From an uncultured Gemmatimonadaceae bacterium (lineage in GTDB: Bacteria > Gemmatimonadota > Gemmatimonadetes > Gemmatimonadales > Gemmatimonadaceae), in NCBI GenBank assembly GCA_963822945.1, contig CAWGJO010000021.1, positions 96,001-160,000 on the forward strand: a stretch of DNA of 64,000 bases, read 5' to 3'. Below the pieces are notes generated by a model. It was not told the DNA's origin. It was given only the letters and a program-made list of their open reading frames with translations, and made no database searches. The position numbers and the translations under genes are program-made. This document shows positions 17,657 through 47,930 of the stretch, in pieces. Numbering within the stretch: position 1 is the stretch's first letter; each line of letters opens with the position of its first letter.

Positions 17657-18238
17657 GTGGGTTCGCTGTTGACGGCGGTGCGACAGGCACCGGATCTCGT
17701 GCTGCACCAGGTGCGGCGGTATGCAGCCCAGGTCGTGATCTCGCGGCCTCAGCAGGTGTCGACGGTGCTTGTGGTGTGCCACGGGAATATCTGTCGCAGC
17801 CCGTATGCGGCCGTGATCATGGGCCGGTGGCTGTCCCGGACGGGAATTTCCGTGCAATCGGCCGGTTTCGTGGGCCCCGGACGGCGATCTCCCCCAGAGG
17901 CGATCCTCGCGGCCCATCGGCGCGGCGTGAACCTGTCCACGCACCGGTCGGTGACGCTCACCTCGGCGATGGTGCGCGCCGCCGGGCTGGTGGTCACGAT
18001 GGACGCGGCCCAGGCTCGCGAAATCCGCCGGCGATTCGGGAAGCCGTCGAGCCAGGTCCTCGTCCTCAGCGACTTCGACCCCATCGAAGCGACCCCCCGC
18101 GCCATCGACGATCCGTTCGGACAGCCGGCAGCGACGTACGATCGCGTCTACGGACGGATCGAACGGTGCTCGGCCGCCCTCACCGAGCGGCTGATCAGGC
18201 GGCTGCGGCGGCCCGAATCTTGCGCGGAAGCGGGGTGA
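17657..18238 (+). CDS. Low-molecular-weight protein tyrosine phosphatase family (Wzb-like), copy 1
   Basis: P-loop VCHGNICRSP, SAG, IDDPFG; GTG 17657 after AGAGGA (start uncertain). Confidence 0.85.
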   Translation: MGSLLTAVRQAPDLVLHQVRRYAAQVVISRPQQVSTVLVVCHGNICRSPYAAVIMGRWLSRTGISVQSAGFVGPGRRSPPEAILAAHRRGVNLSTHRSVTLTSAMVRAAGLVVTMDAAQAREIRRRFGKPSSQVLVLSDFDPIEATPRAIDDPFGQPAATYDRVYGRIERCSAALTERLIRRLRRPESCAEAG

Positions 18239-18301
18239 TCGTCGCGCTGGACCGGCGACGCAACGTCCGTCTTCACTCTCGCTCGTCATCCCCCCGCGAT
18301 C

Positions 18302-18895
18302 ATGACCGTGCGAAAACTGATGCACCCGGTTCTGGCCGCGTCCAGGTTCGCCCGAGACCGGGCTCTGCACCCCTTCCGCCGCCGTGCGGCGTACGCGGCG
18401 GCCGCCCGCGATCCGCGCCCGCGGTCCATCCTGGTCGTGTGCCACGGCAACATCTGCCGGAGCCCCTTTGCCGAGGCCGCGATTCGCCGTGAGTTGAACG
18501 GAGCCGCCGTTCGCGTCAGCTCGGCGGGATTCATCGGGCCGGGCCGCCAGCCGCCCCAGAACGCCCTCCAGGCGGCCGCCGGTCGCGGTATCGACATGAC
18601 CGACCATCGCTCGCGGGTGCTCGAACCAGCCATCGTTCAGGGCGCCGATCTCGTGATCACCATGGATGCGCGCCAGGCACGGGATATCTGCGAGCGGTTC
18701 GGGAAGCCGCCTGGGCAGGTGGTCCCGCTCGGGGATTTCGATCCGGGATCGTCGGACGGACGCACCATCATGGATCCCGTGGAACTCCCCGTTGAAGTCT
18801 TCGATCGGGTCTACGCCCGCATCGAGATGTGCGCGGAGCAGGTGGCCCGTGCTATACTCGGGGCGTCCGGGTCCCCCATCGCGACCTCTCGCTAG
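18302..18895 (+). CDS. Low-molecular-weight protein tyrosine phosphatase family (Wzb-like), copy 2
   Basis: VCHGNICRSPFAE, SSAG, IMDPVE. Confidence 0.88.
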   Translation: MTVRKLMHPVLAASRFARDRALHPFRRRAAYAAAARDPRPRSILVVCHGNICRSPFAEAAIRRELNGAAVRVSSAGFIGPGRQPPQNALQAAAGRGIDMTDHRSRVLEPAIVQGADLVITMDARQARDICERFGKPPGQVVPLGDFDPGSSDGRTIMDPVELPVEVFDRVYARIEMCAEQVARAILGASGSPIATSR

Positions 18896-18950
18896 GCCCA
18901 CCACGGCCGGTGGTCGTTGCGTCAGCGCCACAAATAGACCGTGGCAGGCA

Positions 18951-18967
18951 CGGCACATCCATTGCAT
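18951..18967 (+). promoter_or_regulatory. Putative sigma54 promoter for the deacetylase-FemAB-DegT operon
   Basis: CGGCACATCCATTGCAT: GG-N10-GC, near consensus; ATG lies 14 nt after the -12 C. Confidence 0.65.
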
Positions 18968-18978
18968 CGAGCGTTGTC

Positions 18979-19813
18979 ATGACGCAGCACCATTTTACCG
19001 TCGACGTGGAGGAGTACTTCCACGCATCGGCGTTCGAGCGCGTGATCGACCGGTCGGAGTGGGACGGGCTCGAACGGCGATCGGCGGACGCGGTTCGCCG
19101 GTTGCTCGACCTGATGGCCCGTCACGACGCCACGGGCACCTTCTTCGTCCTTGGCTGGGTTGCGGAGCGCGATCCCGATCTGGTAAAGGCCATCGCCGCC
19201 GCCGGGCACGAGGTGGCTTCGCACGGATGGGACCACCGGCGCGTTACGCAGCAGGCGCCGCACCAATTCAGGGAATCCGTCCGCGACAGCAAACGCCTGC
19301 TCGAGGATACCACCGGCCAGCGCGTGCGCGGGTTTCGCGCGCCCAGCTATTCGATCGTGCCCGGGCTCGAGTGGGCGCTCGATGTGTTGCTGGAAGAAGG
19401 CTACTCCTACGACTCCAGCCTCTTTCCGATCTGGCGACCCGACGGATATGGCTATGCGTGCGGCGAAGCCCGACCCCCATTGGCTCGAGCGTCCCAGCGG
19501 TCGGCTGGCCGAAGTTCCGCCGACCACCTGGCGCCGGTCTGGAATCTCCCTGCCGGCGGCCGGTGGAGCCTACTTCCGTCTGTTCCCCTACGCATTCGTG
19601 CGCTCGGCATTCTCGGCGTGTGACCGCCGTGGCGTGCCGGGCACCTTCTACATCCACCCCTGGGAAATCGATCCGGGGCAACCGCGGATGCCGGTGGGAT
19701 GGGCGACTCGCGTCCGCCACTACGGCGGTATGACGCGGACCATGCCCCGGCTCGAGCGTCTGCTCACCGAGTTCCGGTTCGCCACCATCGCTCAGACGGT
19801 GGACCAGTTGTGA
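18979..19813 (+). CDS. Polysaccharide deacetylase, XrtA/PEP-CTERM-system type with DUF3473-like C-terminus (frameshift near 19458)
   Basis: FTVDVEEYF, TFFVLGWVAE, HEVASHG, GFRAPSYS, YDSSLFP; next frame PAAGGAYFRL, FYIHPWEIDPGQPR. Confidence 0.85.
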
Positions 19814-20832
19814 ACGCGGTCGCCCCGTTCACCGGCCCCGCGGAGGAGTGGGACGCGTTCGTCCGCGCCGATCACGAAGGGACGTTCGCCCACCTGGCCG
19901 CGTGGTGGCCGATCATGCGCGACGTCTTCGGCCACGAGGTGCTGCCGCTCGCCGTTCGCGACGATCGCGGTGAGCTCACCGGCGTGCTGCCACTGGTCCA
20001 TGTGAGCAGCCGGCTGTTCGGGAAGTACCTGATCTCGATGCCGTTCCTGAATGCGGGCGGACCGCTGGGCACGCCCGAAGCTCGGGACGCCCTGGCGGCC
20101 GAGGCGGAGAGTGAGGGGCGGCGGCGCAAGGTGACCCTGGTGGAACTGCGGAACTACGGATCGGCGCCTCAGTGGGGGCGGGTGACGGACCGGAAGATCA
20201 CCGTGCACCTTCCGCTCCCGGCAACCGAGGAGCCGTTGTGGAAGGCGTTTTCGTCGAAGCTGCGCAGCCAGGTCCGGCGGGCGATGCGCGAGGAGTTCGA
20301 GGTCCGGTTCGGCAGCACTGAACTCGACGCCTTCTACGAGGTATTCACGCGCAACATGCGTGCCCTGGGCACCCCCGTGCTGCCGCGGCGTGTGTTCGAG
20401 CGGATCATGAGCGCGTTCCCCGGCGTGGCCGAGTGCGCCGTGGTCTACGACGGCACCACGCCGATCGCCGGCGGCGTCGGGTTCACCTGGAACGGCCAGT
20501 TCGAGTTGACGTGGGCGTCGGCGCTCCGCGAGTACAACGCCCGCGCGCCGAACATGCTTCTGTACTGGTCGTTGATGCAGCGCGCCATCGCCTCGGGCCA
20601 GCGCATCTTCGACTTCGGGCGCTGCACGCCGGGCGGCGGAACGCACAAGTTCAAGCGCCAGTGGGGTGGGCATGACGTTCCCCTGCCCTGGACGCAGTGG
20701 GCCCCGGGCGAAGCGCAGGCACCGCCGTCACCCGATCAGCCCATCTTCCGCATGGCGTCGGCGTGCTGGCGGAGGCTTCCCCTCGCCGTGACCAACCGGT
20801 TGGGGCCGATGATCGCCACGCAGCTACCGTGA
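19810..20832 (+). CDS. FemAB-related GNAT protein, XrtA/PEP-CTERM-system type
   Basis: GTGA overlap; SRLFGKYLISMPFLNAGG, KLRSQVRRA, NMRALGTP, PNMLLYW, FDFGRC, FKRQWG. Confidence 0.85.
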   Translation: MNAVAPFTGPAEEWDAFVRADHEGTFAHLAAWWPIMRDVFGHEVLPLAVRDDRGELTGVLPLVHVSSRLFGKYLISMPFLNAGGPLGTPEARDALAAEAESEGRRRKVTLVELRNYGSAPQWGRVTDRKITVHLPLPATEEPLWKAFSSKLRSQVRRAMREEFEVRFGSTELDAFYEVFTRNMRALGTPVLPRRVFERIMSAFPGVAECAVVYDGTTPIAGGVGFTWNGQFELTWASALREYNARAPNMLLYWSLMQRAIASGQRIFDFGRCTPGGGTHKFKRQWGGHDVPLPWTQWAPGEAQAPPSPDQPIFRMASACWRRLPLAVTNRLGPMIATQLP

Positions 20833-22106
20833 CCGACCCGCGCACGACTCCACCGGGCGATTCGGTGGAGCCGGGGTCTGCGGCTCCCCGGCGGCGTTCC
20901 GGACGTGCATGGCGAAGGCTGCCGCCGGCATACTCGCCCCTGCCGGCACGTGCAATTGCCGGAGCCACTGGCAATCTGATCCGCCGCCACGATTCGCGTC
21001 CGGCGCTGCGTGAGTATCTGAAGAGCGCGTACGAGGCGGAGAGCGTCGCGCTGCTGGACAGTGGAACGCACGCGTTGGAACTCGCCCTCCGCGTCGCCTC
21101 GCAGCTGACGGCAAACGGCACGGGAATCGCGCTGCCCGCGTATGCGTGCTTCGACCTCGCCACGGCCGCCGTTGCCGCCGGAGGGCCTCTGACGCTCTAC
21201 GACGTGCTGCCGGAGACGCTGGCGCCGCAGTCCGAGTCATTCGCCGACGCCATGGCGGCCGGCGCCGGCATCGTCGTGATCGCGCCGCTCTACGGGATGG
21301 CCGTGCCGTGGGACGAACTGCATGCCGCGGCGGCGCACACAGGCGCCGTGCTCGTGGAAGATGCCGCGCAGGGTCACGGAAGCTCGTGGGGCGGCCAGAT
21401 GGCCGGGCGGCAGGCGGGATTGAGCGTGCTGAGCTTTGGGCGAGGCAAGGGCTGGACCGGGGGGAACGGTGGTGCGCTGCTGGCCCGCGGAAAGGCGGCC
21501 GCCCTCCTCGAGGAGATGATGGCCGCCGCCGGCATGCACGCGGAACCCTCGGTCTCGACACTGGGGCGCGCCACCGCGATGAGTGCCTTCGTGCATCCGT
21601 CCACATTTTCGCTCGCGGCGGCCCTGCCCTGGCTCCACCTGGGAGAGACGCGGTATCACACGCCTACCCCATCGCGCCAACTCTCGGCCGCCGCGGCGAG
21701 CCTGCTCATGGCCTCGGCCCCACGTGCTGCTCAGGAAGCCGAGCGCCGCCGGGAAACAGCCGCGTGGTATCTCGCCCAACTCAGTGATCTCCCGCTCGTA
21801 TCGCCGGTGCCACCCGTACCGGGAGCCGAGGGCGGGTACCTGCGGTTCCCCATCCGGGTGCCGCGCGGGTTGAGCGGTTTCGCCGATCCGGAGCGGGCGC
21901 GCGCGCTCGGCGTCGCGCCCGGCTATCCGATCCCCCTCGGGGAATTGCTGCCCGTGCGCGCGCGTCTGATGCCGGAGGCGCACACCCAGCGCTGGCCCGG
22001 AGCCGAGCAACTGTGCCGGGAGCTGGCCACGCTGCCGACCCATTCCATGGCCCGATTGAGTGAGCGTCGGAAGATCGTGAGCCTGCTAGAGAGCTACGCC
22101 GGCTGA
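20829..22106 (+). CDS. DegT/DnrJ/EryC1/StrS-family PLP-dependent aminotransferase-like protein
   Basis: SGTHAL, LPAYAC, VEDAAQ, SFGRGK (PLP Lys), TLPTH. Confidence 0.8.
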   Translation: MTDPRTTPPGDSVEPGSAAPRRRSGRAWRRLPPAYSPLPARAIAGATGNLIRRHDSRPALREYLKSAYEAESVALLDSGTHALELALRVASQLTANGTGIALPAYACFDLATAAVAAGGPLTLYDVLPETLAPQSESFADAMAAGAGIVVIAPLYGMAVPWDELHAAAAHTGAVLVEDAAQGHGSSWGGQMAGRQAGLSVLSFGRGKGWTGGNGGALLARGKAAALLEEMMAAAGMHAEPSVSTLGRATAMSAFVHPSTFSLAAALPWLHLGETRYHTPTPSRQLSAAAASLLMASAPRAAQEAERRRETAAWYLAQLSDLPLVSPVPPVPGAEGGYLRFPIRVPRGLSGFADPERARALGVAPGYPIPLGELLPVRARLMPEAHTQRWPGAEQLCRELATLPTHSMARLSERRKIVSLLESYAG

Positions 22107-23236
22107 TCCACGCCGAGCCGTCGGGCGAAGAGTGCTGCGTATCGTTCGACGGACTGTGAGAGATCGTATTCCGCGCCGGCGCGCCGGAGTGCGGCGGCAC
22201 CGAGGCGTTCCGCTACGGCCCGGTCTGAGAGCACGACCCGCAGCGCGCCCGCCAGGCTCGTGGCGTCTTCGGGCGGTACCACCAGGCCGGCGCCCTCGGC
22301 GAGCACGCTCGCGACATCGCCCACGTCGGTTGCGACGATCGGAAGGCCGGTGAACATCGCTTCGAGGACGGCGAGCGGCAGGCCCTCCGAGCGGGACGGG
22401 AGCGCAAACACATCGCCCGACACGAGGATGTTGGCGATGTCGGCGCGGTAGCCCAGCAGATGCAGGCTGGGTGCGACTCCGAGTTCCTCCGCCTGGCGCT
22501 GCAGCGGTTCGCGCATTTCTCCGCGGCCGGCAATCGCCACGTGGACACCCGGAATGGTCTTCGCGACCTGGGCGAGGGCGTTGACGAGCACATCGTGTCC
22601 CTTCACGGGATAGAGATTGCCCACCGCTACCACGAGGCGGTCGGTCGGCGCCAACCCCAATTCGGCGCGCAAGGTACCGCTCACCTTCGGTGGACGAGGC
22701 ACGCCATTGGGAATCACTGTGACGCGGCCCCCGCTGAGGTTGAGGTCTTGGCGAAGCTGCGCCGCCACGCTCTCGGAGACTCCGACCAGGCCGGCACTGA
22801 GCCCGATGCCGGCACGCATCGCGAGGCGCCGGTGCCACGCCGAAGCGTAATGCCGGCCCCCGTGCATCGTGATGAAGTGCGGGATGCCGGCAAGCCGGGC
22901 GGCGGCGCTACCGAAGACCCCCATGGTGAACTCGTGGCTGTGCACGACGTCGATCCGGTGACGGCGGAACAACCGGGCGAGGGCCAGGACCACACGTGGC
23001 GACGCCGGTCCACCGAGCGCAACGTGATCGATGACGACGTTCGTGCCCTCGAGTTGTTTCGCGAGCCAGCCCTCGCCCTGGACCGGGAGCACTGCAACGC
23101 TCGGGCAACCGGCGCGTTCGAATGCGCCGGCCAGCGCGGCCACCATGCGTTCGGCGCCGCCGGGGCCGTCCGATTCGATCATGTGGGCGATGCGCTTGCA
23201 GCGGATGCTGTCGAGAGCTGGCGTGTGTGTCTTCAT
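22094..23236 (-). CDS. Glycosyltransferase family 4
   Basis: GGAERMV, VIPNGV, VGNLYPVKGH, SRSEGLPLAVLEAM (EX7E). Confidence 0.92.
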   Translation of the reverse strand: MKTHTPALDSIRCKRIAHMIESDGPGGAERMVAALAGAFERAGCPSVAVLPVQGEGWLAKQLEGTNVVIDHVALGGPASPRVVLALARLFRRHRIDVVHSHEFTMGVFGSAAARLAGIPHFITMHGGRHYASAWHRRLAMRAGIGLSAGLVGVSESVAAQLRQDLNLSGGRVTVIPNGVPRPPKVSGTLRAELGLAPTDRLVVAVGNLYPVKGHDVLVNALAQVAKTIPGVHVAIAGRGEMREPLQRQAEELGVAPSLHLLGYRADIANILVSGDVFALPSRSEGLPLAVLEAMFTGLPIVATDVGDVASVLAEGAGLVVPPEDATSLAGALRVVLSDRAVAERLGAAALRRAGAEYDLSQSVERYAALFARRLGVDQPA

Positions 23237-23252
23237 CACGCATGCGGGGGCG

Positions 23253-23268
23253 AGCAATGTTCGTACCG
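23253..23268 (-). promoter_or_regulatory. Putative sigma54 promoter for the GT4 gene
   Basis: Minus strand CGGTACGAACATTGCT: GG-N10-GC with TTGC; GTG/ATG starts 15-18 nt downstream. Confidence 0.6.
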
Positions 23269-23561: not shown

Positions 23562-26108
23562 GTGGTGACGCAGAGTTCCGGGGCTGTAGCGAGTGAAGAC
23601 TCGCGATGCCGGCCGAGCCGCCAGCGATTCCGACGAGAGCCCGTCGGCGCTGGCGGCTCATTCTACACCCTACAAGGTGTGGAACAGAATTACGGCAGTC
23701 GCTTTAGTACGCCCCCGGCCCCCGGGGGGAACTCCACTCAATGCGCTCCCCGTCTCGTTCGCGCCCTCGCGCGCGTTCGACAGTATCCCGCAGTCCTGCT
23801 CGCCCTCGCCATCGCCGCCTGCTCCTCCGACAACAGTACGCAACCCAGCCTGGTCTCGGGTACGAATAGTGCAGCGGGCGCGCCTGCCTCCCTTTCCATC
23901 TCGCCGAGTTCAGCCACCGACAGTATCGGGCACTCGACCCAATTCACGGCCACCGTCTACGATCGTCGAGGGATCGCACTCTCCGGGCGAAAGATTCGTT
24001 GGCATTCCAGCGACTCCACCATCGTCAAGATCGACAGCACCGGCAGGGCGCGACGTTGGGGAGTAGGCAGGACGACGATCACCGCGACCACCGACAGCGT
24101 GAGCGCCACCGCCCAGACGACCTCAACGGGCGTCCCGATCGCGTCGATCACGGTATCGCCGAACCCGTCGACCGAGACCGTCGGCCAGACCACGCAATTC
24201 ACGGCCACGCTGCTGGATTCCAGTGGGAATACGCTGACCAATCGACCCGTAGTGTGGCTCAGTACCGCGCCGAGCGTGGAGTCCATCGACAGCGCGGGGA
24301 TGGCCACGGCACGCAGCACCGGCACCGCGACGGTCTCGGCGACCAGCGCCGGTGTCCTGGGCGTGGCCTCCGTGAACGTTTCCGGCACGACGACCAATGC
24401 GCCGGGTGCGGTGGTGGACTTGGCCGCAGTAGCCTCGAGCGCGACTTCCGCCACGCTGTCGTTCACCGCGGTTGGTGATGGCACCGGCGGGAACGCGACC
24501 TACGACGTCCGGTATGCCGTACATCCCATCAGTTGGGGGAGCGCGACCCAGGTGGCTTCGGGTACGTGCAGCACGCCGGTGACCGGATACACGGCCGGCA
24601 GTGCGGTCAACTGCACCGTGACGGGGCTGACCGCGGCCACGAACTACGATTTCCAGCTCGTGGCGTACCGCGGCACGCTCAGCAACAATGCCGTCTTCGG
24701 ACCGCTCTCCAATGTGGCGACCGCCACGACCCCGAGCGCGCCGGCGGCCAGCGTGGCGAAAGTTGTCGTTTCGCCGAGCACCGCGAGCGACACGGTTGGC
24801 CAGCACTATCAGTTCACGGCCACCGTGCAGGACTCTGCCGGCAACGTGCTGACGGGGCGGACGATCACGTGGGCAAGTTCCGCCACGGGCGTGGCCACCG
24901 TCAACAGTTCGGGCTACACCACCAGCGTTGGCGCCGGGTCGGCGTCAATTCGAGCGACGACTGGCGGCGTCACGGGCAGCGCAAAGCTGTCGGTGGTCGC
25001 GGCGCCGGTCCAGCAGACCGTCTCCTCGGTCAGCGTCGCGCCGACCCCGGACACGTTGGCGCCCGCAGCCACCAAGCAGTTGGCGGCAACGGTCAGGGAT
25101 CAGAACGGCGTCGTCATGACCGGCCAGTCCGTGAGTTGGTCGTCCAATGCGACGGGCGTGGCGACGGTCAACGCCTCCGGGTTGGTGACCGCGGTCGCCA
25201 CCGGCACGGCCACGATCAGGGCCACGAGCAGCGGAAAGAGCGGCACGGCGACGGTTGTCGTCACAAGCGGAACGTCCAACAATCCTCCGCCGCCGCCGCC
25301 GACGGGGACGAGTGAACCGTCCTACAACTCGACAACGGGAACATTGGTGTTCTCCGACAACATGGAGGAGTACACCAGCGTCTCCGCCATGCAGTCCTAT
25401 ACCGGCTCCGCAATGAGCTGGAAGAATGAGTTCGTCGCCTCGGATCGCAACAACCAGATCGTGTCCCCGGGCTACGGCGGGACCGGACAGGCGCTGCGCC
25501 AGGTTTACGCCGGCGCCAACCAAGAAAGTCATACATGGGACCTGATCAACGCCCCGACGCTGCCGGATACCGCGACCGAATTCTTCCAGTACGAAGGGCG
25601 GGTCACGTTGGCCGCGCCGATCACGAACACCGTGCTCGCGTTCAAGTGGTTCATGGGTTTTCACCGCAACGGCAACCGCGTCCAGTGGAATACGCATGAC
25701 CACCTCCCCTGCGGCGTCGACAGCCCGAAGGGCTATTCCCTGTGGCAGGTGTACGACGACGGCGGAGAGACGACGTGCCAGGCCAATCAGCCCGTCGGAC
25801 CCTACCCTGTCGACGTGTTCGACGGGCGATGGCACCGATTCACCTACGAGTATCGTCCGAACACGTCGCCTGGATCGCGCGATGGCATCGCCCGCATGTG
25901 GATTGACGGCACGAAAGTCATCGACGTCTCGGCCTCGGCCGTTGGCGTGACACCAGCAGGCGGCTACAAACCCTGGTGCCAGTGGGACGACGTGGATGGG
26001 CTCTCCACTCAGGCGATTGACCTCATTCGCTGGGCCGGGAATTTGACCACCACCACACCAGGCTTCACGGTGGATATGGACGATTTCATGTGGTGGCGGG
26101 CGAAGTAG
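23562..26108 (+). CDS. Surface lipoprotein with four Big_2 Ig-like domains, an FN3-like domain, Pro linker and C-terminal jelly-roll/lyase-like domain
   Basis: Lipobox LAIAA-C; repeats of type VSP...QFTATV.D..G..L.GR.I.W.SS...VA.V...G; YDFQLVAY. True start is probably ATG 23741 (after GGGGA) with an early frameshift. Confidence 0.8.
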   Translation: MVTQSSGAVASEDSRCRPSRQRFRREPVGAGGSFYTLQGVEQNYGSRFSTPPAPGGNSTQCAPRLVRALARVRQYPAVLLALAIAACSSDNSTQPSLVSGTNSAAGAPASLSISPSSATDSIGHSTQFTATVYDRRGIALSGRKIRWHSSDSTIVKIDSTGRARRWGVGRTTITATTDSVSATAQTTSTGVPIASITVSPNPSTETVGQTTQFTATLLDSSGNTLTNRPVVWLSTAPSVESIDSAGMATARSTGTATVSATSAGVLGVASVNVSGTTTNAPGAVVDLAAVASSATSATLSFTAVGDGTGGNATYDVRYAVHPISWGSATQVASGTCSTPVTGYTAGSAVNCTVTGLTAATNYDFQLVAYRGTLSNNAVFGPLSNVATATTPSAPAASVAKVVVSPSTASDTVGQHYQFTATVQDSAGNVLTGRTITWASSATGVATVNSSGYTTSVGAGSASIRATTGGVTGSAKLSVVAAPVQQTVSSVSVAPTPDTLAPAATKQLAATVRDQNGVVMTGQSVSWSSNATGVATVNASGLVTAVATGTATIRATSSGKSGTATVVVTSGTSNNPPPPPPTGTSEPSYNSTTGTLVFSDNMEEYTSVSAMQSYTGSAMSWKNEFVASDRNNQIVSPGYGGTGQALRQVYAGANQESHTWDLINAPTLPDTATEFFQYEGRVTLAAPITNTVLAFKWFMGFHRNGNRVQWNTHDHLPCGVDSPKGYSLWQVYDDGGETTCQANQPVGPYPVDVFDGRWHRFTYEYRPNTSPGSRDGIARMWIDGTKVIDVSASAVGVTPAGGYKPWCQWDDVDGLSTQAIDLIRWAGNLTTTTPGFTVDMDDFMWWRAK

Positions 26109-26120
26109 GCCACCGCTCAC

Positions 26121-26168
26121 GCAGCGGCGCCGGAGGATCCTTCGGGGTCCCCCGGCGCCGTTGCTTTC
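26121..26168 (+). terminator. Probable intrinsic terminator hairpin
   Basis: GCAGCGGCGCCGG-AGGATCC TTCG GGGTCC-CCCGGCGCCGTTGC followed by TTTC, just after the stop. Confidence 0.65.
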
Positions 26169-26182
26169 TGGCCCTGTGCCCG

Positions 26183-26243
26183 GTGCGCCTCGTGCGCCTC
26201 GTGCGCCTCGTGCGCCTCGTGCGCCTCGTGCGCCTCGTGCGCC
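26183..26243. repeat. Tandem 9-mer (GTGCGCCTC)x6 plus partial copy
   Basis: Read directly; intergenic between the two paralogous lipoprotein genes. Confidence 0.95.
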
Positions 26244-26318
26244 CGAGAACCACGGTCGCTATTCCGTTTCCCGCAATGGCATACCAAGTTGGTCAGAATG
26301 AGGGCCGGAATGGACCAT

Positions 26319-27233
26319 ATGGGGAATATTCGGCGCTGGCGATTGCTCCGAGGATTGGCGCTCGTTGGCATCATGGCTTGCGGCAGCAGCATGACGCCCG
26401 GGGGCACGCCCCGAAAGCTGGGGCCTCCCCCAAGTTCGGAGCCGACGTTCGATGCCACCAAGGATACGATGGTGTTCTCCGACGACATGGACGAGTACAC
26501 CAGCGTCGCGAACATGCAGGCTTACACCGGTCCCGCGATGAGTTGGAAGAACATCTTCGTGGCCACTTTGAACAACACACAACGGCTCATCAAACCAGGT
26601 CACGGAGGCACCGGGCAGGCCCTCCGGGAGGTATACTCGGGCGCCGATCAGGAGACGCATACGTGGGATCTCATCAACATGCCCACGCTCCCCGATACGA
26701 CGACCCACTTCTTCCAGTATTGGGCGCGCGTCACCGTGGCGTCGCCCTTGGGAAGAACCGTCCTGGCCTTCAAGTGGTTCATGGCGTTTCACCGCGACGG
26801 AAACCGCGTCCAGTGGAACACCCACGATCACTTACCGTGCGCCGCGATCGCGCCGTCTTCTTTCGTCTGGCAGGTCTACGACGCAGGCGGTGGCACCACA
26901 TGCCAGGCCAACCAGCCGGTCGGGCCCTATCCGGCGGCGGTGTTCGACGGCCAGTGGCACCGCTTCACATACGAGTACAGGCCGAACACAGCCCCGGGCT
27001 CGCGGGACGGCATCGCCCGCATGTGGGTGGACGGCACGAAGCTTATCGATGTATCGGCTGCCGCCGTCGGCATCACGCCGGCGGGGGGTTACAAGTCGTG
27101 GTGCCAGTGGGACGATGTCGATGGGCTCTCGACCGAGGGGATCGATCTCATCCGTTGGGCGGGGAACCTGACAACCGTTACCCCGCCCTTCACAGTCGAC
27201 ATGGATGACTTCCGCTGGTGGCGGGCGAAGTAG
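26319..27233 (+). CDS. Lipoprotein consisting of a single jelly-roll/lyase-like domain (paralog of the upstream C-terminal domain)
   Basis: Lipobox VGIMA-C; domain shares VLAFKWFM, RVQWNTHDHLPC, FDGxWHRFTYEYRPNT.PGSRDGIARMW.DG, VDMDDF.WWRAK with 25311..26108. Confidence 0.8.
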   Translation: MGNIRRWRLLRGLALVGIMACGSSMTPGGTPRKLGPPPSSEPTFDATKDTMVFSDDMDEYTSVANMQAYTGPAMSWKNIFVATLNNTQRLIKPGHGGTGQALREVYSGADQETHTWDLINMPTLPDTTTHFFQYWARVTVASPLGRTVLAFKWFMAFHRDGNRVQWNTHDHLPCAAIAPSSFVWQVYDAGGGTTCQANQPVGPYPAAVFDGQWHRFTYEYRPNTAPGSRDGIARMWVDGTKLIDVSAAAVGITPAGGYKSWCQWDDVDGLSTEGIDLIRWAGNLTTVTPPFTVDMDDFRWWRAK

Positions 27234-27261: not shown

Positions 27262-29178
27262 CTAGCAACTCGCGCCCCAGCGTCGGCGCCACGCTTCGAA
27301 CATCAGCACGCTCCACAAGAGGTGCCCGCCGTTCGTCCGCCCCTTGGAATGCTCGCTCCAAGTTCGCCGCACGGCGGCTGCGTCGAAGAACCCAGCGCCT
27401 CGAAGCGGCCCCTCGGCAAGCAGGTCGTTGGCCCAATCCCGAAGCGCTCCCCGCAGCCACACTCCAATCGGCACTTCGAACCCCATCTTCGGCCGTTCGA
27501 AAAGTGACACGGGCAGATAGCGGGAGAGGACGCGTCGAAGCAGGATCTTGCCCTCGCGAGGTCCGGTCCGCCAAGCGAGCGGCAGCGTCCACGCAAACTC
27601 CGCGACGCGGTGATCGAGCAGCGGAACGCGCCCCTCGAGTCCCACTGCCATCGATGCCCGATCGAACTTGGTGAGGAGGTCGTCCGGCAGGTAGACGGCG
27701 GCGTCCGCAATCATCATACGCTCCATCGGAGCCGACCGGCATGCGTTGCCCAGAAGCCGGAACAGCCGACCGTCACTCTCCGCGCGAAAGCGTTCGTCGA
27801 CGAGCACGTCGGCGTTGCTCGCCGTCGACACCAACCCGCGGTAGAGCGCCTCCAGGCTCGGCGCGCTCAGCAAGTCCGCCGCCTTTGAAAGCTGCCCCGC
27901 TCGTGTCCCCGACACCTGGGCAGCCACTCGGGCCACATGCCGAAGCATGGTCCCACCACCTCGCCGTAGCGGGACCGGGATCGGCTGCAACCTTCGCCAG
28001 GCCCGCCCGCTGAACCGGTACCGGTCGTACCCGCCGAACAACTCGTCGCCACCGTCGCCGGAAAGCGCGACCGTCACGTGCTTGCGCGCCAACGCGGCGA
28101 CGATGTGGGTCGGAATCTGCGACACGTCAGCCAGCGGCTCATCATACATCTCAGGCAGTGCCGGAATGAGCGCCTGTGCCTCGCCTGCCGTCACCATCAT
28201 CTCGGTGTGCGCCGTCCCCAGAAATTCCGCGATGGCCCGCGCGTACCGACTCTCGTCGTACCGCTGCTCGGCGAAGCCGATGGTGAACGTCTTCACCGGA
28301 CGGTCGGCTTCGGCCTGCATCAGAGCCACCACCAGAGAGGAATCGATCCCGCCCGACAGGAATCCCCCGAGCGGTACATCGGCAATCATCCGGAGGCGCA
28401 CGGCGTCACGGAGCAGGCCATCCAGCGCTTCCTCCGCCTCTGGCTGACTCCCGCCGAACGGGCGTTCAGCGCCGGCGCCGGCGATAGCCTCGACTGTCCA
28501 GTAGGGCTCGGGCGCCCAGGACGCGTCGGCGGCTTCAAGCCTCAGCAGGTGCCCCGGCGCGAGTTTCATCGCATCGGCGAAGATGCAGGCCGGAGACGGC
28601 ACGTACGTGTAGCGCAAATAGTCGCCGAATGCGGCCGGCGCCACCCGACGACTGAATCGCGGATGTGCCATCAGCGCCTTGAGCTCCGACCCGAACAGCA
28701 GATCGCCGTCCGCGGTGCGCCCAACATACAGCGGTTTGATGCCCACACGATCACGTGCAAGGTACAGGGCCCGCTCCTGCGTGTCCCAGAGTGCAAACGC
28801 GAACATGCCGATGAAACGTTGGACGGCTCCTCGAACACCCCACTGCATGAACGCGGCCAGCATCACCTCGGTGTCCGACCCCCCTCGAAATGTGTGGCCG
28901 TGCTCCCGCAGTTCTTCCCGCAACGCGATGAAGTTGTAAACCTCCCCATTGTAACAGATCACGAATCGTCCATCCGGACTCGTCATCGGCTGATGCCCGA
29001 GCGCACTGAGATCGACGATGGACAGGCGGCGATGTCCGAACGCTACCGGCCCGTCGACCCAACTACCGGCGTCGTCGGGGCCACGGTGCGCGATCGCGTC
29101 GCGCATGGTCGTCACGACGCGCTGCATCTCATCGGCACCCGCAGGCTGCCGCGCCCAGATTCCGGCAATGCCACACAC
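27262..29178 (-). CDS. asnB: Asparagine synthase (glutamine-hydrolysing) family amidotransferase, copy 1
   Basis: N-terminal (M)CGIAG, HRGPD, GHRRLSIVD, NGEVYN, FLSGGIDSS, LSGDGGDELFGGY, RVPLLD, KMGFEVP. Confidence 0.93.
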   Translation of the reverse strand: MCGIAGIWARQPAGADEMQRVVTTMRDAIAHRGPDDAGSWVDGPVAFGHRRLSIVDLSALGHQPMTSPDGRFVICYNGEVYNFIALREELREHGHTFRGGSDTEVMLAAFMQWGVRGAVQRFIGMFAFALWDTQERALYLARDRVGIKPLYVGRTADGDLLFGSELKALMAHPRFSRRVAPAAFGDYLRYTYVPSPACIFADAMKLAPGHLLRLEAADASWAPEPYWTVEAIAGAGAERPFGGSQPEAEEALDGLLRDAVRLRMIADVPLGGFLSGGIDSSLVVALMQAEADRPVKTFTIGFAEQRYDESRYARAIAEFLGTAHTEMMVTAGEAQALIPALPEMYDEPLADVSQIPTHIVAALARKHVTVALSGDGGDELFGGYDRYRFSGRAWRRLQPIPVPLRRGGGTMLRHVARVAAQVSGTRAGQLSKAADLLSAPSLEALYRGLVSTASNADVLVDERFRAESDGRLFRLLGNACRSAPMERMMIADAAVYLPDDLLTKFDRASMAVGLEGRVPLLDHRVAEFAWTLPLAWRTGPREGKILLRRVLSRYLPVSLFERPKMGFEVPIGVWLRGALRDWANDLLAEGPLRGAGFFDAAAVRRTWSEHSKGRTNGGHLLWSVLMFEAWRRRWGASC

Positions 29179-35909: not shown

Positions 35910-36184
35910 TTGGAACTCCCTGACTCGGGGTCGGGCCGAAACATCTAACCATGATTGGACGAATTCTCAAGGCGGTCGTCGATTGTGGACCCGCCAATCC
36001 ACTATTTTCATCCGGCAGCGTGTGGAGCGCGGCGTTCGGTTCCCGTAGCGACGTACCTGGCCCCAATAGTCGACGGAATGGTTCTTGACATGATGGAGTT
36101 GATGCCGCGAAACCACCCCCGCCCCTACGGTAACGACATCCGCGGCGGCACCAGCCCGGGCCGCCGCCGGTGGACTTGGGCGTC

Positions 36185-37510: not shown

Positions 37511-39013
37511 ATGTCAGACTCCACGCCTAATTTGCCCCCCACGAGCACCGAGTCGCGCAGCAAGTCCGAGTCACTCGATCGGTCGCTCCTTCACGGGCTG
37601 GCCTGGACGAGCGGTGCAAAGTGGGGCAGCCAATTGCTCTCGTGGGCCTCCACGGTCATCGTGGCACGCCTCCTCACGCCCGAAGACTACGGATTGGTCG
37701 GCATGGCCTCGATCTACCTCGGCCTGGTGACCATGCTCAGTGAGTTCGGACTCGGTACTACGGTCCTGGCCTTGCGCGACCTGAGCGAGGAGCAGCTGGC
37801 CCAGCTGAACGGCTTCGCTCTTCTCTTTGGACTCGGCAGCTTTGCCCTGTCATGCCTCGCCGCCTGGCCGTTGGGAACATTCTTTCGATCGCCCGAGCTA
37901 CCCGCCGTTGTGATCGTCATGAGCGTGACCTTCATCATCACGTCGTTCCGGATCGTCCCCGGTGCCCTGCTCCGTCGAGAACTGCGATTTCGCGAATTGG
38001 CGGTGATCGACACCGTAAGCGCGATGACCCTCGCGGTCGCGTTGATCGCATTTGCCTACTTCGGGTTCAGGTACTGGACCCTCGTCATCGGCGGCGTGCT
38101 CAGCACGACGCTCTCAACCGTCCAGATCCTCCGGCTTCGGCGGCTCCGCGTGGCCCGACCGCGCGCCAGCACGTTGCAGCATGCGATGCGATTCAGCGGC
38201 CACATCCTCACGTCCCGTCTCTCGTGGTATGCGTACTCGAACGCAGACTTCGTCATCGCCGGCCGCCTGTTGGGCAAAGCGGCGCTTGGCGTCTACGATT
38301 TTGCCTGGACCCTGGCCAACGTACCAATCGAGAAGATCACGGTGCTCATCGGGCAGGTCGCGTTTCCGATCTTCGCGGCCGTACAGCATGAGCCGGCGGA
38401 ACTGCGCCGTTATCTGCTGCGATTGACCGAGGGGCTGGCCCTGCTGACCATGCCGGCGTCGGTCGGGATGGCGCTGGTGGCGCCGGATTTCGTCTCGGTG
38501 TTTCTCGGACCGAGGTGGAGTGGCGCCGTCCGTCCTCTAGAACTACTGGCGATCTTCGTCGGCTTCCGGTCGGTGATCCCGCTGTTTGCCCAGATCCTGA
38601 ACGTGATCCGCGACTCGCGATTCGCGATGTATACCTCCCTGCTCTCTGCTGTGGTAATGCCGGTTTCGTTCTACTTCATGGGCCGGCGATGGGGCACGCC
38701 GGGACTCGCCCTCGCATGGATGACCGTCTATCCCGTGCTGGCGTTCTTCCAATACTGGCGGGTTTCTCGACGTATTGCGCTGAGCACCAGTGATTACCTC
38801 CGGGCCTTGTGGCCCGCGGTGAGCAGCACCACCGTGATGTCCATGGCGGTCTGGGGAACGAAGACGGTGATCGGCGCGCATGTGCCCGGCCCGGTTGTGC
38901 TCGGAGTCCAGGTGGGGATCGGCGCCGTGGTGTACTCAGTTATGTGCCTCACGGTGCACCGCCGCCGCCTCGTCGCATTTGTCGAGGTCGTGCGACGCCA
39001 ACGTCGGACGTAG
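37511..39013 (+). CDS. Wzx-type polysaccharide flippase (PST family)
   Basis: ARLLTPEDYGL, many TM segments, NADFVIAGRLLG.AALGVY. Confidence 0.9.
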   Translation: MSDSTPNLPPTSTESRSKSESLDRSLLHGLAWTSGAKWGSQLLSWASTVIVARLLTPEDYGLVGMASIYLGLVTMLSEFGLGTTVLALRDLSEEQLAQLNGFALLFGLGSFALSCLAAWPLGTFFRSPELPAVVIVMSVTFIITSFRIVPGALLRRELRFRELAVIDTVSAMTLAVALIAFAYFGFRYWTLVIGGVLSTTLSTVQILRLRRLRVARPRASTLQHAMRFSGHILTSRLSWYAYSNADFVIAGRLLGKAALGVYDFAWTLANVPIEKITVLIGQVAFPIFAAVQHEPAELRRYLLRLTEGLALLTMPASVGMALVAPDFVSVFLGPRWSGAVRPLELLAIFVGFRSVIPLFAQILNVIRDSRFAMYTSLLSAVVMPVSFYFMGRRWGTPGLALAWMTVYPVLAFFQYWRVSRRIALSTSDYLRALWPAVSSTTVMSMAVWGTKTVIGAHVPGPVVLGVQVGIGAVVYSVMCLTVHRRRLVAFVEVVRRQRRT

Positions 39014-39311: not shown

Positions 39312-43246
<3,935 letters not shown>

Positions 43247-43513
43247 CCGGGGCACCAAGCGTGGGACGGAACGGGAGTGCGCGGCCGGGGCACCGACATG
43301 GACGGTTATATTTCCGCGTCGGCTTCCCGCGCTATCTCTCGCCGTGGGGATCGGGCCGGGAGGGGCCTGACGCTCCTCCCGAGCGAACTGAGTTGCCGTA
43401 CCGGCACCCGTACCTCGCTCGTCGATCGGTGGGCCGGCTAGAGGACATCGGACGCCGCCGGCGAAGCGAGAAACGCGTGCAGAACGACTGGCATCGGACC
43501 TGGAGTGATGACG

Positions 43514-44650
43514 ATGAAGAACTCTCGCCGTACAACTTCCGATGTCGTGATTCACGCGCTCAGCAGTGGCGGCCTGTACGGCATCGAACGCATGCTCCTC
43601 AACCTCCTGCCTGAACTGCAGCGGAAAAACTGTCCGGTGCGCCTGCTCTGCCTGGACGGTCCGGATGCCGAAATCGTGGGAGCGGCGGAGAACCTGGGAA
43701 TCCCGACAGCGTCAGTCATGTGCACCGCGCGATTCACACCGCGTGGATGGGCTGATCTCTACCGGACGATCGGCAGTTACGCCCCGCGGATCGTGCACGT
43801 TCACGGCTACAAGGCCACTATCCTGGCCGGGGCTGTGTCGGTCGCGCAGCGGCTGCCCACCGTGGCGACATATCACGGAGTGGCAGCAAAGGCCGGCGAG
43901 CACTCGAAGTCTCTCGCGCGGTATCTCGCCCTCGAGAGCCCAGTACTCCGACGCTTCAGCGGAACGGCGGCTGTATCCGATCAGATTGCCAAAGAATTGA
44001 CGTCTCGACGCGTGCTGTCCGGTCGCATTCGAGTAATCGCAAACGGTATCAGGATTCCCACCCCGACCACGGCCAGCCGCGCCGCGCCCGACATCGCGCA
44101 GGCCTTTTCGCCGTGTGTGCTTTCTCTCAGCCGGCTCGCCCCGGAGAAGAACGTTCACTTGGTGATCGATGCCGTTGCCGCACTCCGCACCGACTTCCCG
44201 AACATCGGCCTCGTGGTGGCGGGTCACGGTGATCTGCGGAACGACTTGCAGGCGCGCGCGGCCTCCCTCGGTATTGAACATGCCGTGCGGTTCGTGGGCT
44301 TCGTCCGGGACGTGCGTCCGCTTTACGAGCAGAGCGATGTGTTCGTCCTGGCGTCACAGACCGAAGGGATGCCAATGGCCCTCCTGGAGACGATGGCCCT
44401 CGGCGTGCCGATCGTGGCCTCCCGGGTCGGCGGAATCCCGCGGATGCTCGACGATGAACGCGAGGCGTTGCTCATCGAGCCCAACAGCCCGCAAAGCCTG
44501 TTCCAGGCTCTCCGCCGGATCGTGGCGGAAGAGCCGCTGCGCACACGCCTCGCGGAAGCCGCCCGGAAGCGGTTCGAGCGCGAGTTTACCGTCGGGCGAA
44601 TGGCCGATGCCTACATCCGGTTCTACGACGATGTCGCGCCCCATGCTTAG
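43514..44650 (+). CDS. Glycosyltransferase family 4
   Basis: YGIERM, IANGI, SRLAPEKN, SQTEGMPMALLETM. Confidence 0.92.
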   Translation: MKNSRRTTSDVVIHALSSGGLYGIERMLLNLLPELQRKNCPVRLLCLDGPDAEIVGAAENLGIPTASVMCTARFTPRGWADLYRTIGSYAPRIVHVHGYKATILAGAVSVAQRLPTVATYHGVAAKAGEHSKSLARYLALESPVLRRFSGTAAVSDQIAKELTSRRVLSGRIRVIANGIRIPTPTTASRAAPDIAQAFSPCVLSLSRLAPEKNVHLVIDAVAALRTDFPNIGLVVAGHGDLRNDLQARAASLGIEHAVRFVGFVRDVRPLYEQSDVFVLASQTEGMPMALLETMALGVPIVASRVGGIPRMLDDEREALLIEPNSPQSLFQALRRIVAEEPLRTRLAEAARKRFEREFTVGRMADAYIRFYDDVAPHA

Positions 44651-44790
44651 GTACGATATGTTGACGTTGCGGGCTCCGCATCCGGCAGCGCGTCTCCCGC
44701 GCGGCCGGATTCAGACGTTGTCCGCTGCGAGAGTCGTGGATTGGAAACTGCCGAGGCTTTCTCTTGGGTGAGCGATCACGAAGTGATGAC

Positions 44791-46119
44791 GTGAGCGAGT
44801 CGCGCGCCCCCTGGGGCATCGCACGCCTCCTGCTTGCCGCCGCCGTACTCGCGTACGCCTGGCGCATCCAGGATCTCTTCCCCGTTCTGGACGCGTTCAA
44901 ACCGGTGACGCTCGTGACCGGCGCGTTGTTCCTCCTTATGCTCTTGGATCCGCAGCTAGCGAGGAAGATCGCGATCGTCGCGGGAAAGCCACCGGCCATC
45001 CTTGCAGCAATCATCGCCGCCATCGCCGTACTCGGAATCCCGCTCAGCCTGTATCCCGGGTTGAGCTTCAATGTGGCGTTGAAAGTCGTGCTGCCCTCGG
45101 TCATTGTCGCTATCGGCATCGCAGCCACCATCCGCAGCTCGATCGATGCGTATCGGTTCTCAGCCATGCACGTCTTCGGTGCGCTGATATTCTCGTCGGT
45201 CGTCCTCGCCCGGTTCAAGGTGGGACCCGACGGCCGGCTCGGAGACCTCGTGTACTACGATGCCAACGGACTCGGCCTGATCCTCGTGTGCACACTGCCG
45301 CTAGCCAGTTGGTTTGCATTCAATAGCGTTCGGCGCGAGGCAAGACTCGGGGCGATGGCTGCAATCGGCATCATGCTCTTTACGATCATCCGGACTGGTT
45401 CTCGTGGCGCCTTCCTGGGCCTCCTCACCGTAGTTGGCTACGACGTGTTCGCCAACCGGTCGGCCCCGCTCCGCCGGCGACTCGGGCTTGCAGGGATCGC
45501 CGTCGTGCTTTTCGCAGGCGCGGCCGGCACGAAGTATTGGACGATGATGGACAGCATCATGCACCCGACCAAGGACTACAACTGGGCCGGCAACTCCGAG
45601 GGCGGCCGAATGAGTGTCTGGAAGCGTGGGATCGGCTACATGGTCAGCCACCCCGTGGTCGGGGTCGGTGCCGGGAATTTCCCGGTGGCTGAGGGCACGA
45701 TCTCACCCCTGGCGCACATCCAGAATTATGGCTTTGGGCTGAAGTGGTCTGCCGCCCACAATTCCTTCGTGGAAGTTGGTGCCGAGCTTGGAATCCCGGC
45801 CCTGATTGCATTCGTCGCCCTGCTGGTAGGTGGAATCGGACGTGCCCGACGCGTGGTTCGCCTCGGTCGACTCGTGGGGGATGTCCGGGCCGCCGCGATG
45901 GGGGATGCGCTCGCCGCAAGCCTGATTGGGTACTGTGTCAGCGGGTTCTTCCTTTCGCAGGGCTATTCGGCCTTGCCATACAGTGTCATTGGCATTTCAA
46001 TCGGCCTCCACACTGCGCTGGCGAGGCAGCGATTGGCGAGCGGGTTGATCGCGCGTCGGGCCGTTGTCGAATCGCCGCCCCCGACAATTTCAACGGCGGC
46101 CTGGACCTCACAGTCATGA
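44791..46119 (+). CDS. O-antigen ligase / Wzy-like polymerase
   Basis: Multi-TM; DANGLG, TGSRGAFL, GRMSVW...HPVVGVGAGNF, AAHNSFVEVGAELG. Confidence 0.88.
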   Translation: MSESRAPWGIARLLLAAAVLAYAWRIQDLFPVLDAFKPVTLVTGALFLLMLLDPQLARKIAIVAGKPPAILAAIIAAIAVLGIPLSLYPGLSFNVALKVVLPSVIVAIGIAATIRSSIDAYRFSAMHVFGALIFSSVVLARFKVGPDGRLGDLVYYDANGLGLILVCTLPLASWFAFNSVRREARLGAMAAIGIMLFTIIRTGSRGAFLGLLTVVGYDVFANRSAPLRRRLGLAGIAVVLFAGAAGTKYWTMMDSIMHPTKDYNWAGNSEGGRMSVWKRGIGYMVSHPVVGVGAGNFPVAEGTISPLAHIQNYGFGLKWSAAHNSFVEVGAELGIPALIAFVALLVGGIGRARRVVRLGRLVGDVRAAAMGDALAASLIGYCVSGFFLSQGYSALPYSVIGISIGLHTALARQRLASGLIARRAVVESPPPTISTAAWTSQS

Positions 46120-47076
46120 CTGGTATGCGGGTCGTCCCGAGCCCACGGCGCTGAGCCACCGGTGTCGCGGCCTGGACGACGAGGCCGAAACTTCTGACTC
46201 CAGCCGTCCTGACCAACGCGTCTGTGCCAGCGGAGATGGGGGCCCCCGGCAGGGGCGCGTCACCCGCGCGGTTTCCCCCTCAAGCTCCCCTCCGTGGACG
46301 GCGGCATCGGGCACGCCTCTCTGCCGACATCGCTCCGTCATTTCTGCTGTACTAGACACCGCCATGCGCGAGTTCCGGATAGATCACACCCCGGACGATC
46401 AGAGCACCAATCAGCGCCGCATCCGACACCGGGGCCACGCTCCCTGCCGACGCGCACAATCGTATCCGTGTCGGCGAGCGCCGCGACGCGGGTATTGGTC
46501 CCCGAATGCATTCGGGCCGCCGCCCATGACTCCGCCGCCGGCAAATGCTTGGGGCACTCGGAACACATCTTTAGCGACGACCATCCAGCGTACCCACCAG
46601 GCAATGCAGGGTTCAGACCGGCGCGACATAAAGAAGACACAAGCACGCGGGCAGTCTCCGCCCGCGACATCCGACTCCGGGAACACGAGCCGGAAGTGAG
46701 TAGCCCGCGACCCTAGCACCACCCACCCGAGTTGCGGTGGGAAGCGTGGCTCACGACCAGATGCTGAAGGCGTTCACGCTGGCGCTAGCCCGCCTCGAAA
46801 TGCAGCATTCGAGTAGTGGAAGACCTCGTCGCCGGCCTGGTGCCTGCCGGACAAGTTGTGGCTGGGGCGGGCTCGCACGCGAGCCCCCCGCTTCACATCT
46901 GGGCGGTGCTGCCAACACGGCGACCGCGAGGGAAGTCGCCTGGCGGCGCCACGGCATCAAGGCCACCCGCCGTGTGACTTCCATCGCGGCACGTGCGCGG
47001 CGAACCCGGTTAATTCGTGCCGCTCGGACGTGGCACAATGTTTCATTCACGCAGCGCCCACGGCACGGAACTTGTT

Positions 47077-47930
47077 ATGGAACGGCCCGTGACTCCCCAA
47101 CAACCGCGAATCAGCGCGCCGACGGCTTGGCAGATTACTCCCAGTTGTCCGGCAGAGTGGCAGGGTTGGATGAACGCCTGCGACGCTGGATTCTTCCATT
47201 CGCCCAAGAGCTTGCAGACGGGTGCGCCCGCGGGCGAACCGTTGTTCTGTGTCCACTCGAGTCCAGACGGGGTGGACGGAGTAGCGGTAGGCGTTCGTCA
47301 TGCCTGCCGGCTGAGCCGGCAGGCAAGGCACGTGTATTTTCCGTCAATTCCTGCATTACGCGATACTCACAATGGCGCGGGCGCCATCGAGGACTTGGTC
47401 GCCGCACTCAGCGAAGGCGGCGCCGCCGAAGTGATCATGGATTCCTTTGACGCTACGTGGTGCCACGGCTTGCCCGGCGCGACGGCATGCGTTCGCCGAG
47501 AAGAATTCGTCATCGCGCTCGGTGGGACACGGGAGGAAATGCTTGCGCGCTGCAGCCAACACCATCGGCGACACATCCGAAGGGGCGATCGTGCCGGCTG
47601 GACGGTACGCGCACACCTGGACTCGGATGCGAGTCGAGTGCTCGATGTGGTTCAGACCGGAGCGAGGCAGCGAACCAGCCTGCGCGCCGCGTCGCTTGAC
47701 GCCTCTTCGGTCGCAGGCCTTGCCGATCACATCCTCGACTCAACCACAGCGTGGGGGGCGACGGTGTTCGCGGCCTGGGATGGTGAGGTGATGCTCGCCG
47801 CAATATTGGTCGGCTGGGGGGGCCGTCGTGCGTACTATATCGCGGGAGGAGGAACGCCTGAGGGATACGCCGTGGGCGCGGCGGCGTGGCTCCAGTGGCA
47901 CATCACGGTGATGCTCGCATCCGGGGGCTG
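47077..47930 (+). CDS. GNAT/FemAB-like acyltransferase, apparently truncated at a junction near 47.93 kb
   Basis: FFHSP, HHRRHIRRG, AYYIAGG...GY..GA..WLQW; the expected C-terminal part (cf. FDFG...FK in 19810..20832) is missing. Confidence 0.65.

Follow-up and report, generated by a model that had tools for sequence, protein, structure and literature searches.

A single-module non-ribosomal peptide synthetase gene as a candidate glycan aminoacylation cassette in a Wzx/Wzy-type polysaccharide locus of a Gemmatimonadaceae bacterium

A candidate aminoacylation cassette

The DNA analyzed here, a stretch of 64,000 nucleotides from an uncultured Gemmatimonadaceae bacterium (assembly GCA_963822945.1, contig CAWGJO010000021.1, positions 96,001 to 160,000; henceforth the window), holds an island of genes which, judged by protein families, is a Wzx/Wzy-type surface-polysaccharide locus. 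Between wzx and a wzy-like gene, and on the same strand, lies a gene for a single-module non-ribosomal peptide synthetase (NRPS) consisting of a condensation (C), an adenylation (A), a carrier (T) and a thioesterase (TE) domain. It is, if by a modest degree, probable that this cassette serves to decorate the glycan with glycine that it has first loaded and acylated. In the proposed series of steps, which we hold with falling confidence from the first to the last, the A domain would load glycine onto the T domain; the C domain, an orphan of apparent D-type, would act as a starter and acylate the bound glycine from a coenzyme A (CoA) thioester or another donor in trans; and, still in the cytoplasm and ahead of flipping by Wzx, the TE with its cysteine nucleophile would transfer the acylated glycine to a nucleotide sugar or a lipid-linked repeat, at a free amine or hydroxyl. 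As a variant, a carboxyl group of the glycan might be the donor for the C domain, giving a uronyl-glycine amide. An earlier interpretation drawn from the letters of the window (the sequence-only reading) had proposed an aminoacylated glycan, which is partly supported by the present analysis; nothing supports the cross-linked exopolysaccharide that it had also offered.

Domains and predicted activities of the NRPS

The C-domain profile scored 253-339 bits on the C domains of McyB, BacC, PvdL, TycB and SrfA-C and at most 143 bits on all else. These five we take to be D-type (DCL) domains, and by this assignment the C domain of the window is D-type as well. Its HHxxxDG motif is intact (HHILIDGRS). 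No module with a terminal epimerisation domain was found upstream, and searches of the window's own genome (G000) with two queries, the C profile and another C-like domain, returned a single C-like domain; G013 has one and G527 two, and all of those in G000 and G527 lie in the operon. Likewise, no free carrier (PF00550) was found in the islands of G000, G009 or G527. Because no other C-like domain was found in the genome and no free carrier in the island, this orphan C domain without an NRPS donor is best read as a starter, and a starter C domain that uses acyl-CoA has been described (PMC7804268). A second NRPS-like protein (A-T-TE), encoded on another contig of the same genome (C35), was considered as donor module and rejected; among the five genomes searched it has an orthologue in G009 and none in G527, G013, G582 or G158. 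This gene and one for a phosphopantetheinyl transferase (PPTase) lie in another glycan-type locus (L190:9160-12908) with genes for a GT4, a C-methyltransferase, a dTDP-sugar epimerase, a class III aminotransferase, a thiamine pyrophosphate enzyme and a deacetylase, and the conserved Asp of its A domain is apparently missing.

The best solved match of the window's A domain is AB3403, with which it agrees at eight of the ten residues of the A-domain code (DILQAGLVWK as compared to DILQLGVVWK); AB3403 was crystallised with glycine, taken to represent its substrates (PMC10510592), and the A domain is predicted, by its glycine-type code, to activate glycine. Among 40 A domains of the clade described below, with codes read by alignment, six have a Gly-type code, 11 have DI[VA]QVTL[IV]WK, seven have DIVQIGG[VI]YK and the remainder have other codes, a Thr-type prefix (DFWNIG) alone coming from a pattern search. 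As the codes vary within the clade, the A domain is, to judge from the alignments, swapped beneath a constant C domain. The T domain carries the motif GGHSL and the TE the motif GFCxGG, in which cysteine replaces serine; the nucleophile is cysteine in at least 90% of the aligned TE rows (18, one of them partial), and the histidine is invariant. Cysteine thioesterases are also common to cyanobacterial and actinobacterial NRPS loci (L054, L055, L059, L061, L068, L074, L081, L082, L085 and L093), and in those scanned, HupE/UreJ, OCD or acyl-CoA dehydrogenase neighbours recur.

Genomic neighbourhoods and cassette behaviour

The locus is shared with G009, in which 20 of the 21 island genes as well as grpE, dnaJ and mnmA are syntenic and in which it also adjoins grpE. 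NRPS orthologues (58-60% identity) occur in two of 40 relatives, the five closest named loci (58-61% identity) are from Gemmatimonadaceae, and C domains scoring at core-clade level are found in four of 251 family genomes, the present one included. The core clade is defined by a tree of 100 C domains, in which 12 members including that of the window (support 1.0) lie within a clade of 29 (support 0.998); all 29 begin near the N-terminus of the protein and, where motifs are readable, show DGR and TKTTRR, although the search pattern contained TKTTRR, so that conservation of the motif was partly selected, whereas the neighbourhoods were not.

The sequence-only reading had named as one refutation that NRPS homologues never accompany such glycan genes elsewhere; glycan genes were found near the NRPS at all seven loci of the core clade, at four of eight of the wider clade and at two of four sister loci, as opposed to none of 48 control loci. 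The counts were made after removal of ten duplicate loci and of loci with less than 3 kb of non-NRPS DNA (3/10 core, 10/18 wider, 2/6 sister and 20/68 control loci), each locus's own proteins being excluded as queries; the queries derive from clade loci, and kin are not independent. Pfam assignments for 71 of the 97 called neighbours at 13 control loci yielded one GT1 and no polysaccharide genes. In addition, clade NRPSs lie near glycan genes at loci of Acidobacteriota and Nitrospirota (L049, L050 and L052).

Some further loci are worth recording. At the Nitrospirota locus L052:796-17193, wza, wzc, a PPTase gene and a polyketide synthase gene accompany a related C-A-T module. A single run at L128:3-13969 encodes a GFO oxidoreductase, a hexapeptide acetyltransferase, a DegT protein and a UDP-sugar dehydrogenase (Wbp-like) together with FemAB, a C-A-T module whose A-domain code is of the Gly type, a free TE and a PPTase. 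At L185, L187, L189 and L132, TauD precedes NRPS operons that begin with more distant relatives of the C domain; in three of the four a GT4 precedes them as well, and two have ABC transporter genes nearby.

The NRPS is an optional cassette of the capK-asnB-capA-asnB operon, because the same operon occurs with no copy (G158, G357), one copy (L046, and L044, where the operon stands at a contig end without capK) or two copies (G527 and L048, which are the same locus). A PPTase gene follows the single NRPS genes of L044 and L046 and the pair of G527; in G158 capA directly adjoins asnB, and in G357 a GT-like gene occupies the NRPS slot. The tandem copies of G527 each have their own C and TE domains and differ in their A codes, the pattern expected if they served separate single attachments. 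CapA orthologues were found in six of the 251 family genomes. In the same region of the NRPS-less genomes G158 (L173:13031-16545) and G357 (L178:3-3368), genes for FkbH, a small carrier and an MBOAT protein are present, possibly an alternative carrier-based acylation cassette; none of the three was seen in the stretches of G527 scanned. The sequence-only reading had joined the ligases and the NRPS in one line of synthesis, which did not hold as an obligatory one: as the same operon occurs without an NRPS in G158 and G357, the AsnB, FemAB/GNAT, ATP-grasp and CapK proteins would likely form separate amides on the same glycan, with no need of the NRPS.

Alternative explanations

Several points weigh against transfer of acyl-glycine to the glycan. 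The core clade stems mostly from one family, so that its seven loci are not seven independent cases, and at one of them (L105) the glycan call rests on an acyltransferase and an AsnB. In the wider clade, glycan neighbours are missing at L111, L119, L120 and L124, while L118 and L119 open multi-module NRPS operons; because members of the wider clade lack glycan neighbours or head such operons, the window-type C domain is, by genomic context, also one that makes ordinary peptides. Of the solved C-A-T-TE systems, those whose product is known (EntF and ObiF1) each set a small molecule free (PMC10510592). Three possible clues were discarded. The fold of the TE (structure model with a predicted local distance difference test score, pLDDT, of 90) matches best the TE of Pks13, at a template modelling (TM) score of 0.63-0.64, which is not discriminating, other thioesterases being almost as close (0.60-0.62). 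The cysteine nucleophile and basic lid of the TE, taken as a mark of glycan transfer, are both shared by ten control loci without glycan genes. CapK, as a dedicated donor enzyme, is kept where the NRPS is missing.

Accordingly, the product of the NRPS might be a separate small molecule (an amino-lipid or an N-acyl amino acid) to which a neighbouring GT4 perhaps adds a sugar, and which shares its regulation with the polysaccharide without being attached. Release by EntF and ObiF1, the existence of clade members that have no glycan genes around them or that open multi-module clusters, and the dispensability of the cassette are all in line with such a product. We nevertheless regard it as unlikely, as the NRPS is repeated inside Gemmatimonadaceae glycan operons and lies near glycan genes in L049, L050 and L052, compared to none of the controls, and as a Pfam search of the window's open reading frames (ORFs) revealed no dedicated exporter or tailoring set in the island.

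A role of CapA would lead to a different product. The NRPS, CapA and the ligases might build a short D-amino-acid peptide, CapA acting in trans as the epimerase that supplies the D-type C domain, and the peptide linking or cross-linking the glycan or anchoring it to the lipoproteins. CapA lies directly beside the NRPS in L044, L046, L047 and L048, the one solved relative of CapA that turned up is MslH (8gq9), a peptide epimerase with which its NNH and two later His positions align, and MslH and CapA are treated together in PMC8179263; moreover, an aminoacyl sugar joins protein to glycan in the Wbp/Vim system (PMC7468200). The match to MslH is weak, however (E 2e-18; 77 bits on NF038314 with a cut-off of 700), that to PGA_cap being strong; G158 and G357 have CapA but no NRPS, and no CapA was seen at L105, L108 or L109; and neither a carrier for a peptidyl donor in the island nor an exosortase in the window's own genome was found. 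A D-peptide linker thus appears improbable.

Taking up acyl-glycyl transfer to the glycan again, a wider proposal may be put forward tentatively, namely that the clade, with its DGR/TKTTRR C domain, swappable A domain and Cys-TE, comprises programmable glycan aminoacylases. One gene would write one amino acid per Wzx/Wzy repeat, a strain would alter its surface by acquiring the module, duplicating it or changing its specificity, and the donor for the D-type C domain may be a sugar acid or one epimerised by CapA.

Assembly state of the locus

Frameshift-aware alignment to three intact homologues placed 24 frameshifts and one stop codon in the NRPS gene, all between 40413 and 42871, and the corresponding translation is a complete C-A-T-TE protein. 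Two short-read contigs from run X1, about 99% alike, differ by indels with which the stop disappears and the reading frame is open again at both of the places tested, and for this reason the frame breaks look like assembly errors; run X1 contains 5% of the sampled words at a depth below 5, covers few of the breaks and is perhaps not independent of the source. That the NRPS is a decaying pseudogene or passenger without a role in the locus, as the packing of the breaks into one segment among mostly intact neighbours might suggest, is very improbable in view of this repair, of an identity to the intact homologues of 65-68% over the whole gene as compared to 60-69% for the intact C domain, and of open NRPS frames of at least 1300 aa in L044-L048, L105, L108 and L109. 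Upstream of the gene, one promoter-like site was found (39196-39225), with 1.6 expected by chance.

The contig is probably chimeric at about 47,930, in which case positions 47930-64000 of the window and the rest of the contig (C21) would be Myxococcota DNA, and other findings from there should be treated with care. Synteny with G009 stops at 47,927, inside the second GNAT gene; tetranucleotide divergence is 0.03-0.06 over the remaining 247 kb past the join, compared with 0.01-0.025 before the island and 0.027-0.039 inside it; the DNA past about 47,930 gives merely short, weak matches in 30 relatives; and all seven taxon-named matches of the one right-flank protein tested are from Myxococcota. 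In G009 the next genes include a sigma54 regulator, wzc, wza and a UDP-GlcNAc 2-epimerase gene, whose orthologues open contig C36 of the window's own genome, as well as a GT2 gene, wcaJ and an unknown 411-aa gene, orthologues of which were not found in that assembly. The window has no export (wza/wzc) or priming genes; in G009 Wza/Wzc export and a priming transferase are linked to the locus.

Gene content of the polysaccharide island

Sixty-six ORFs of the window were searched against Pfam and 42 against NCBIfam (Table 1). All genes listed by the sequence-only reading are present at the places it had given, and its five amide- or acyl-forming chemistries (AsnB, ATP-grasp, FemAB/GNAT, CapK/PaaK-like and NRPS) are borne out by the protein families; the CapA/PGA_cap protein, two lipobox proteins and the two LMW phosphatases come in addition.

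Table 1. Features of the polysaccharide island, with positions in the window.
Feature	Position	Strand	Evidence and remarks
Low-molecular-weight (LMW) tyrosine phosphatase 1 (Wzb-like)	17534..18238	+	LMWPc E 3e-22; start codon uncertain
LMW tyrosine phosphatase 2 (Wzb-like)	18302..18895	+	LMWPc E 4e-25
XrtA-type polysaccharide deacetylase (CE4 + DUF3473)	18985..19813	+	TIGR03006 over two frames, 215 + 102 bits; one frameshift at ~19450
FemAB-like GNAT	19810..20832	+	TIGR03019 305 bits, cut-off 260
DegT-family pyridoxal phosphate aminotransferase	20829..22106	+	PF01041 E 2e-30; EDAAQ and SFGRGK motifs in translation
GT4 glycosyltransferase a	22094..23257	-	PF00534/PF13439
Predicted lipoprotein, Big_2 repeats and fn3	23562..26108	+	lipobox; C-terminal domain weakly polysaccharide-lyase-like (PF14099 below cut-off)
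Predicted lipoprotein, paralogue of the C-terminal domain of the preceding one (76%)	26289..27233	+	lipobox; PF14099 E 0.002
AsnB amidotransferase 1	27262..29178	-	TIGR01536 497 bits; N-terminal Cys kept
GT4 glycosyltransferase b	29181..30404	-	Pfam
CapK/PaaK-like adenylate-forming ligase	30383..31795	-	NCBIfam PaaK-type below cut-off; no Pfam match; PDB 2y4o E 1e-22
AsnB amidotransferase 2	31986..33881	+	TIGR01536 458 bits; N-terminal Cys kept
Polysaccharide deacetylase 2 (CE4)	33878..34798	+	PF01522 E 5e-17
CapA/PGA_cap metallophosphoesterase	34809..35909	-	PF09587 E 1e-60; 8gq9 (MslH) E 2e-18; membrane anchor not predicted
ATP-grasp ligase (ATPgrasp_Ter type)	36170..37381	+	PF15632 E 2e-12
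Wzx flippase	37511..39013	+	PF13440 E 5e-62
Single-module NRPS, C-A-T-TE	39312..43246	+	C ~39312-40600, A 40650-42130, T 42180-42400, TE 42410-43246
GT4 glycosyltransferase c	43505..44650	+	Pfam
Wzy-like/O-antigen-ligase-family membrane protein	44764..46119	+	PF04932 E 5e-18; TIGR03097 below cut-off
Second FemAB-type GNAT (Acetyltransf_6), truncated by join	47017..47927	+	PF13480; similarity to G009 orthologue stops at 47927
Probable chimeric join	47928..48100	.	composition shift, synteny lost; Myxococcota-like beyond

PF04932 spans polymerases and ligases, and the island holds one copy. The two lipoproteins (23562-27233) share a domain of 270 aa that is 76% identical between them, has a weak polysaccharide-lyase signal and is kept in related loci; its predicted structure has a pLDDT of 32, and no relative of it was found in the PDB. 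The GC content at third codon positions (GC3) is 0.75-0.80 in ten of the 11 island genes measured and 0.90 in the FemAB gene, compared to 0.87-0.93 in four flanking genes, which fits a foreign origin of the island. At the other end of the window (29-12472), genes for MacA, an ABC ATPase and six MacB/FtsX-type permeases flanking an OmpA-domain gene were assigned by Pfam.

Significance

Amino-acid substituents are common on bacterial capsules and O-antigens, the routes cited being FemAB-like proteins, ATP-grasp ligases, AsnB and split systems of A domain, carrier and transferase; linked peptide ligases occur in teichuronopeptide and O-antigen synthesis (PMC4431377). The five chemistries of the island together are largely a rich example of such known amide decoration, and what is new is an NRPS cassette that is linked to glycan genes, optional and open to re-specification, and whose D-type C domain is an orphan. 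If the proposed transfer is true, a full C-A-T-TE module would be a further route to glycan aminoacylation, the substituent would be predictable from the A-domain code, and some lone NRPS genes that are counted as antibiotic clusters in soil metagenomes would be envelope genes. The natural series of zero, one and two copies renders the proposal testable.

Comparison with known systems

In its C domain, the NRPS resembles the DCL domains of McyB, TycB and SrfA-C (257-339 bits with the profile, HHxxxDG intact), from which it differs by having DGR and TKTTRR instead of DGW and TVSGR and no upstream epimerisation module that could be found. Adenylation and carrier chemistry places D-Ala on a surface glycoconjugate in the DltABCD system. 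Similarly, AlmEFG puts glycine on a surface glycoconjugate by such chemistry, glycylating lipid A in Vibrio cholerae (PMC4278540). Both systems employ a free-standing A domain, carrier and acyltransferase and have no C or TE domain, whereas the window encodes one C-A-T-TE protein. AB3403, EntF and ObiF1 have the same domain order, the A domain being closest to that of AB3403 and the Cys-TE occurring also in ObiF1; these proteins receive their donor from a free-standing A domain and carrier (PMC10510592), while the island, which has the CapK-like ligase, revealed no free-standing carrier of their type, nor did those of G009 and G527. Compared with AB3403, the C domain of the window scores 77 bits and is apparently D-type. 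At the level of titles and the opening parts of abstracts, no description was found in the open-licence literature of a Wzx/Wzy glycan that is modified by an NRPS module.

The sequence-only reading had also pointed to exosortase/PEP-CTERM exopolysaccharide loci. This stands for the protein families, as the FemAB-like protein exceeds the TIGR03019 cut-off and the deacetylase, AsnB and GT4 have TIGR03006, TIGR03108 and TIGR03088 as best matches. It does not stand for the system as a whole: AsnB and GT4 do not reach the equivalog cut-offs (both AsnB proteins are over that of TIGR01536 and under that of TIGR03108), the NRPS is an addition, and searches for an exosortase found none in G000 (88% complete), G009 (99%), G013 or G582, while one is present in G527 and G158. 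A search for PEP-CTERM proteins gave no matches anywhere, controls included. Because an exosortase was not found in G000 or G009, the locus is not filed as an XrtA system.

A further likeness, at family level, is to the Wbp/Vim system of Porphyromonas gingivalis and Tannerella forsythia (PMC7468200), in which a CE4 protein, a FemAB-like protein (TIGR03019), AsnB, an aminotransferase and Wzx likewise occur together. There, the FemAB-like VimA sets Gly or Ser on a sugar amine, AsnB makes a uronamide and a putative CE4 deacetylase is present, and like arrangements occur in exosortase loci (PMC7468200). The ORFs scanned in the window include no WbpA, WbpB or WbpD, a result that leaves aside roughly 5 kb of unassembled island and the rest of the genome. 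The sequence-only reading had known of no characterised pathway with this combination of genes; the part formed by deacetylase, FemAB and AsnB is known from Wbp/Vim, and it is for the NRPS that no description was found, the accessible part of the Wbp/Vim account (PMC7468200) likewise not featuring one. To the gene set shared with Wbp/Vim, the window adds the NRPS, an ATP-grasp ligase, CapK and CapA.

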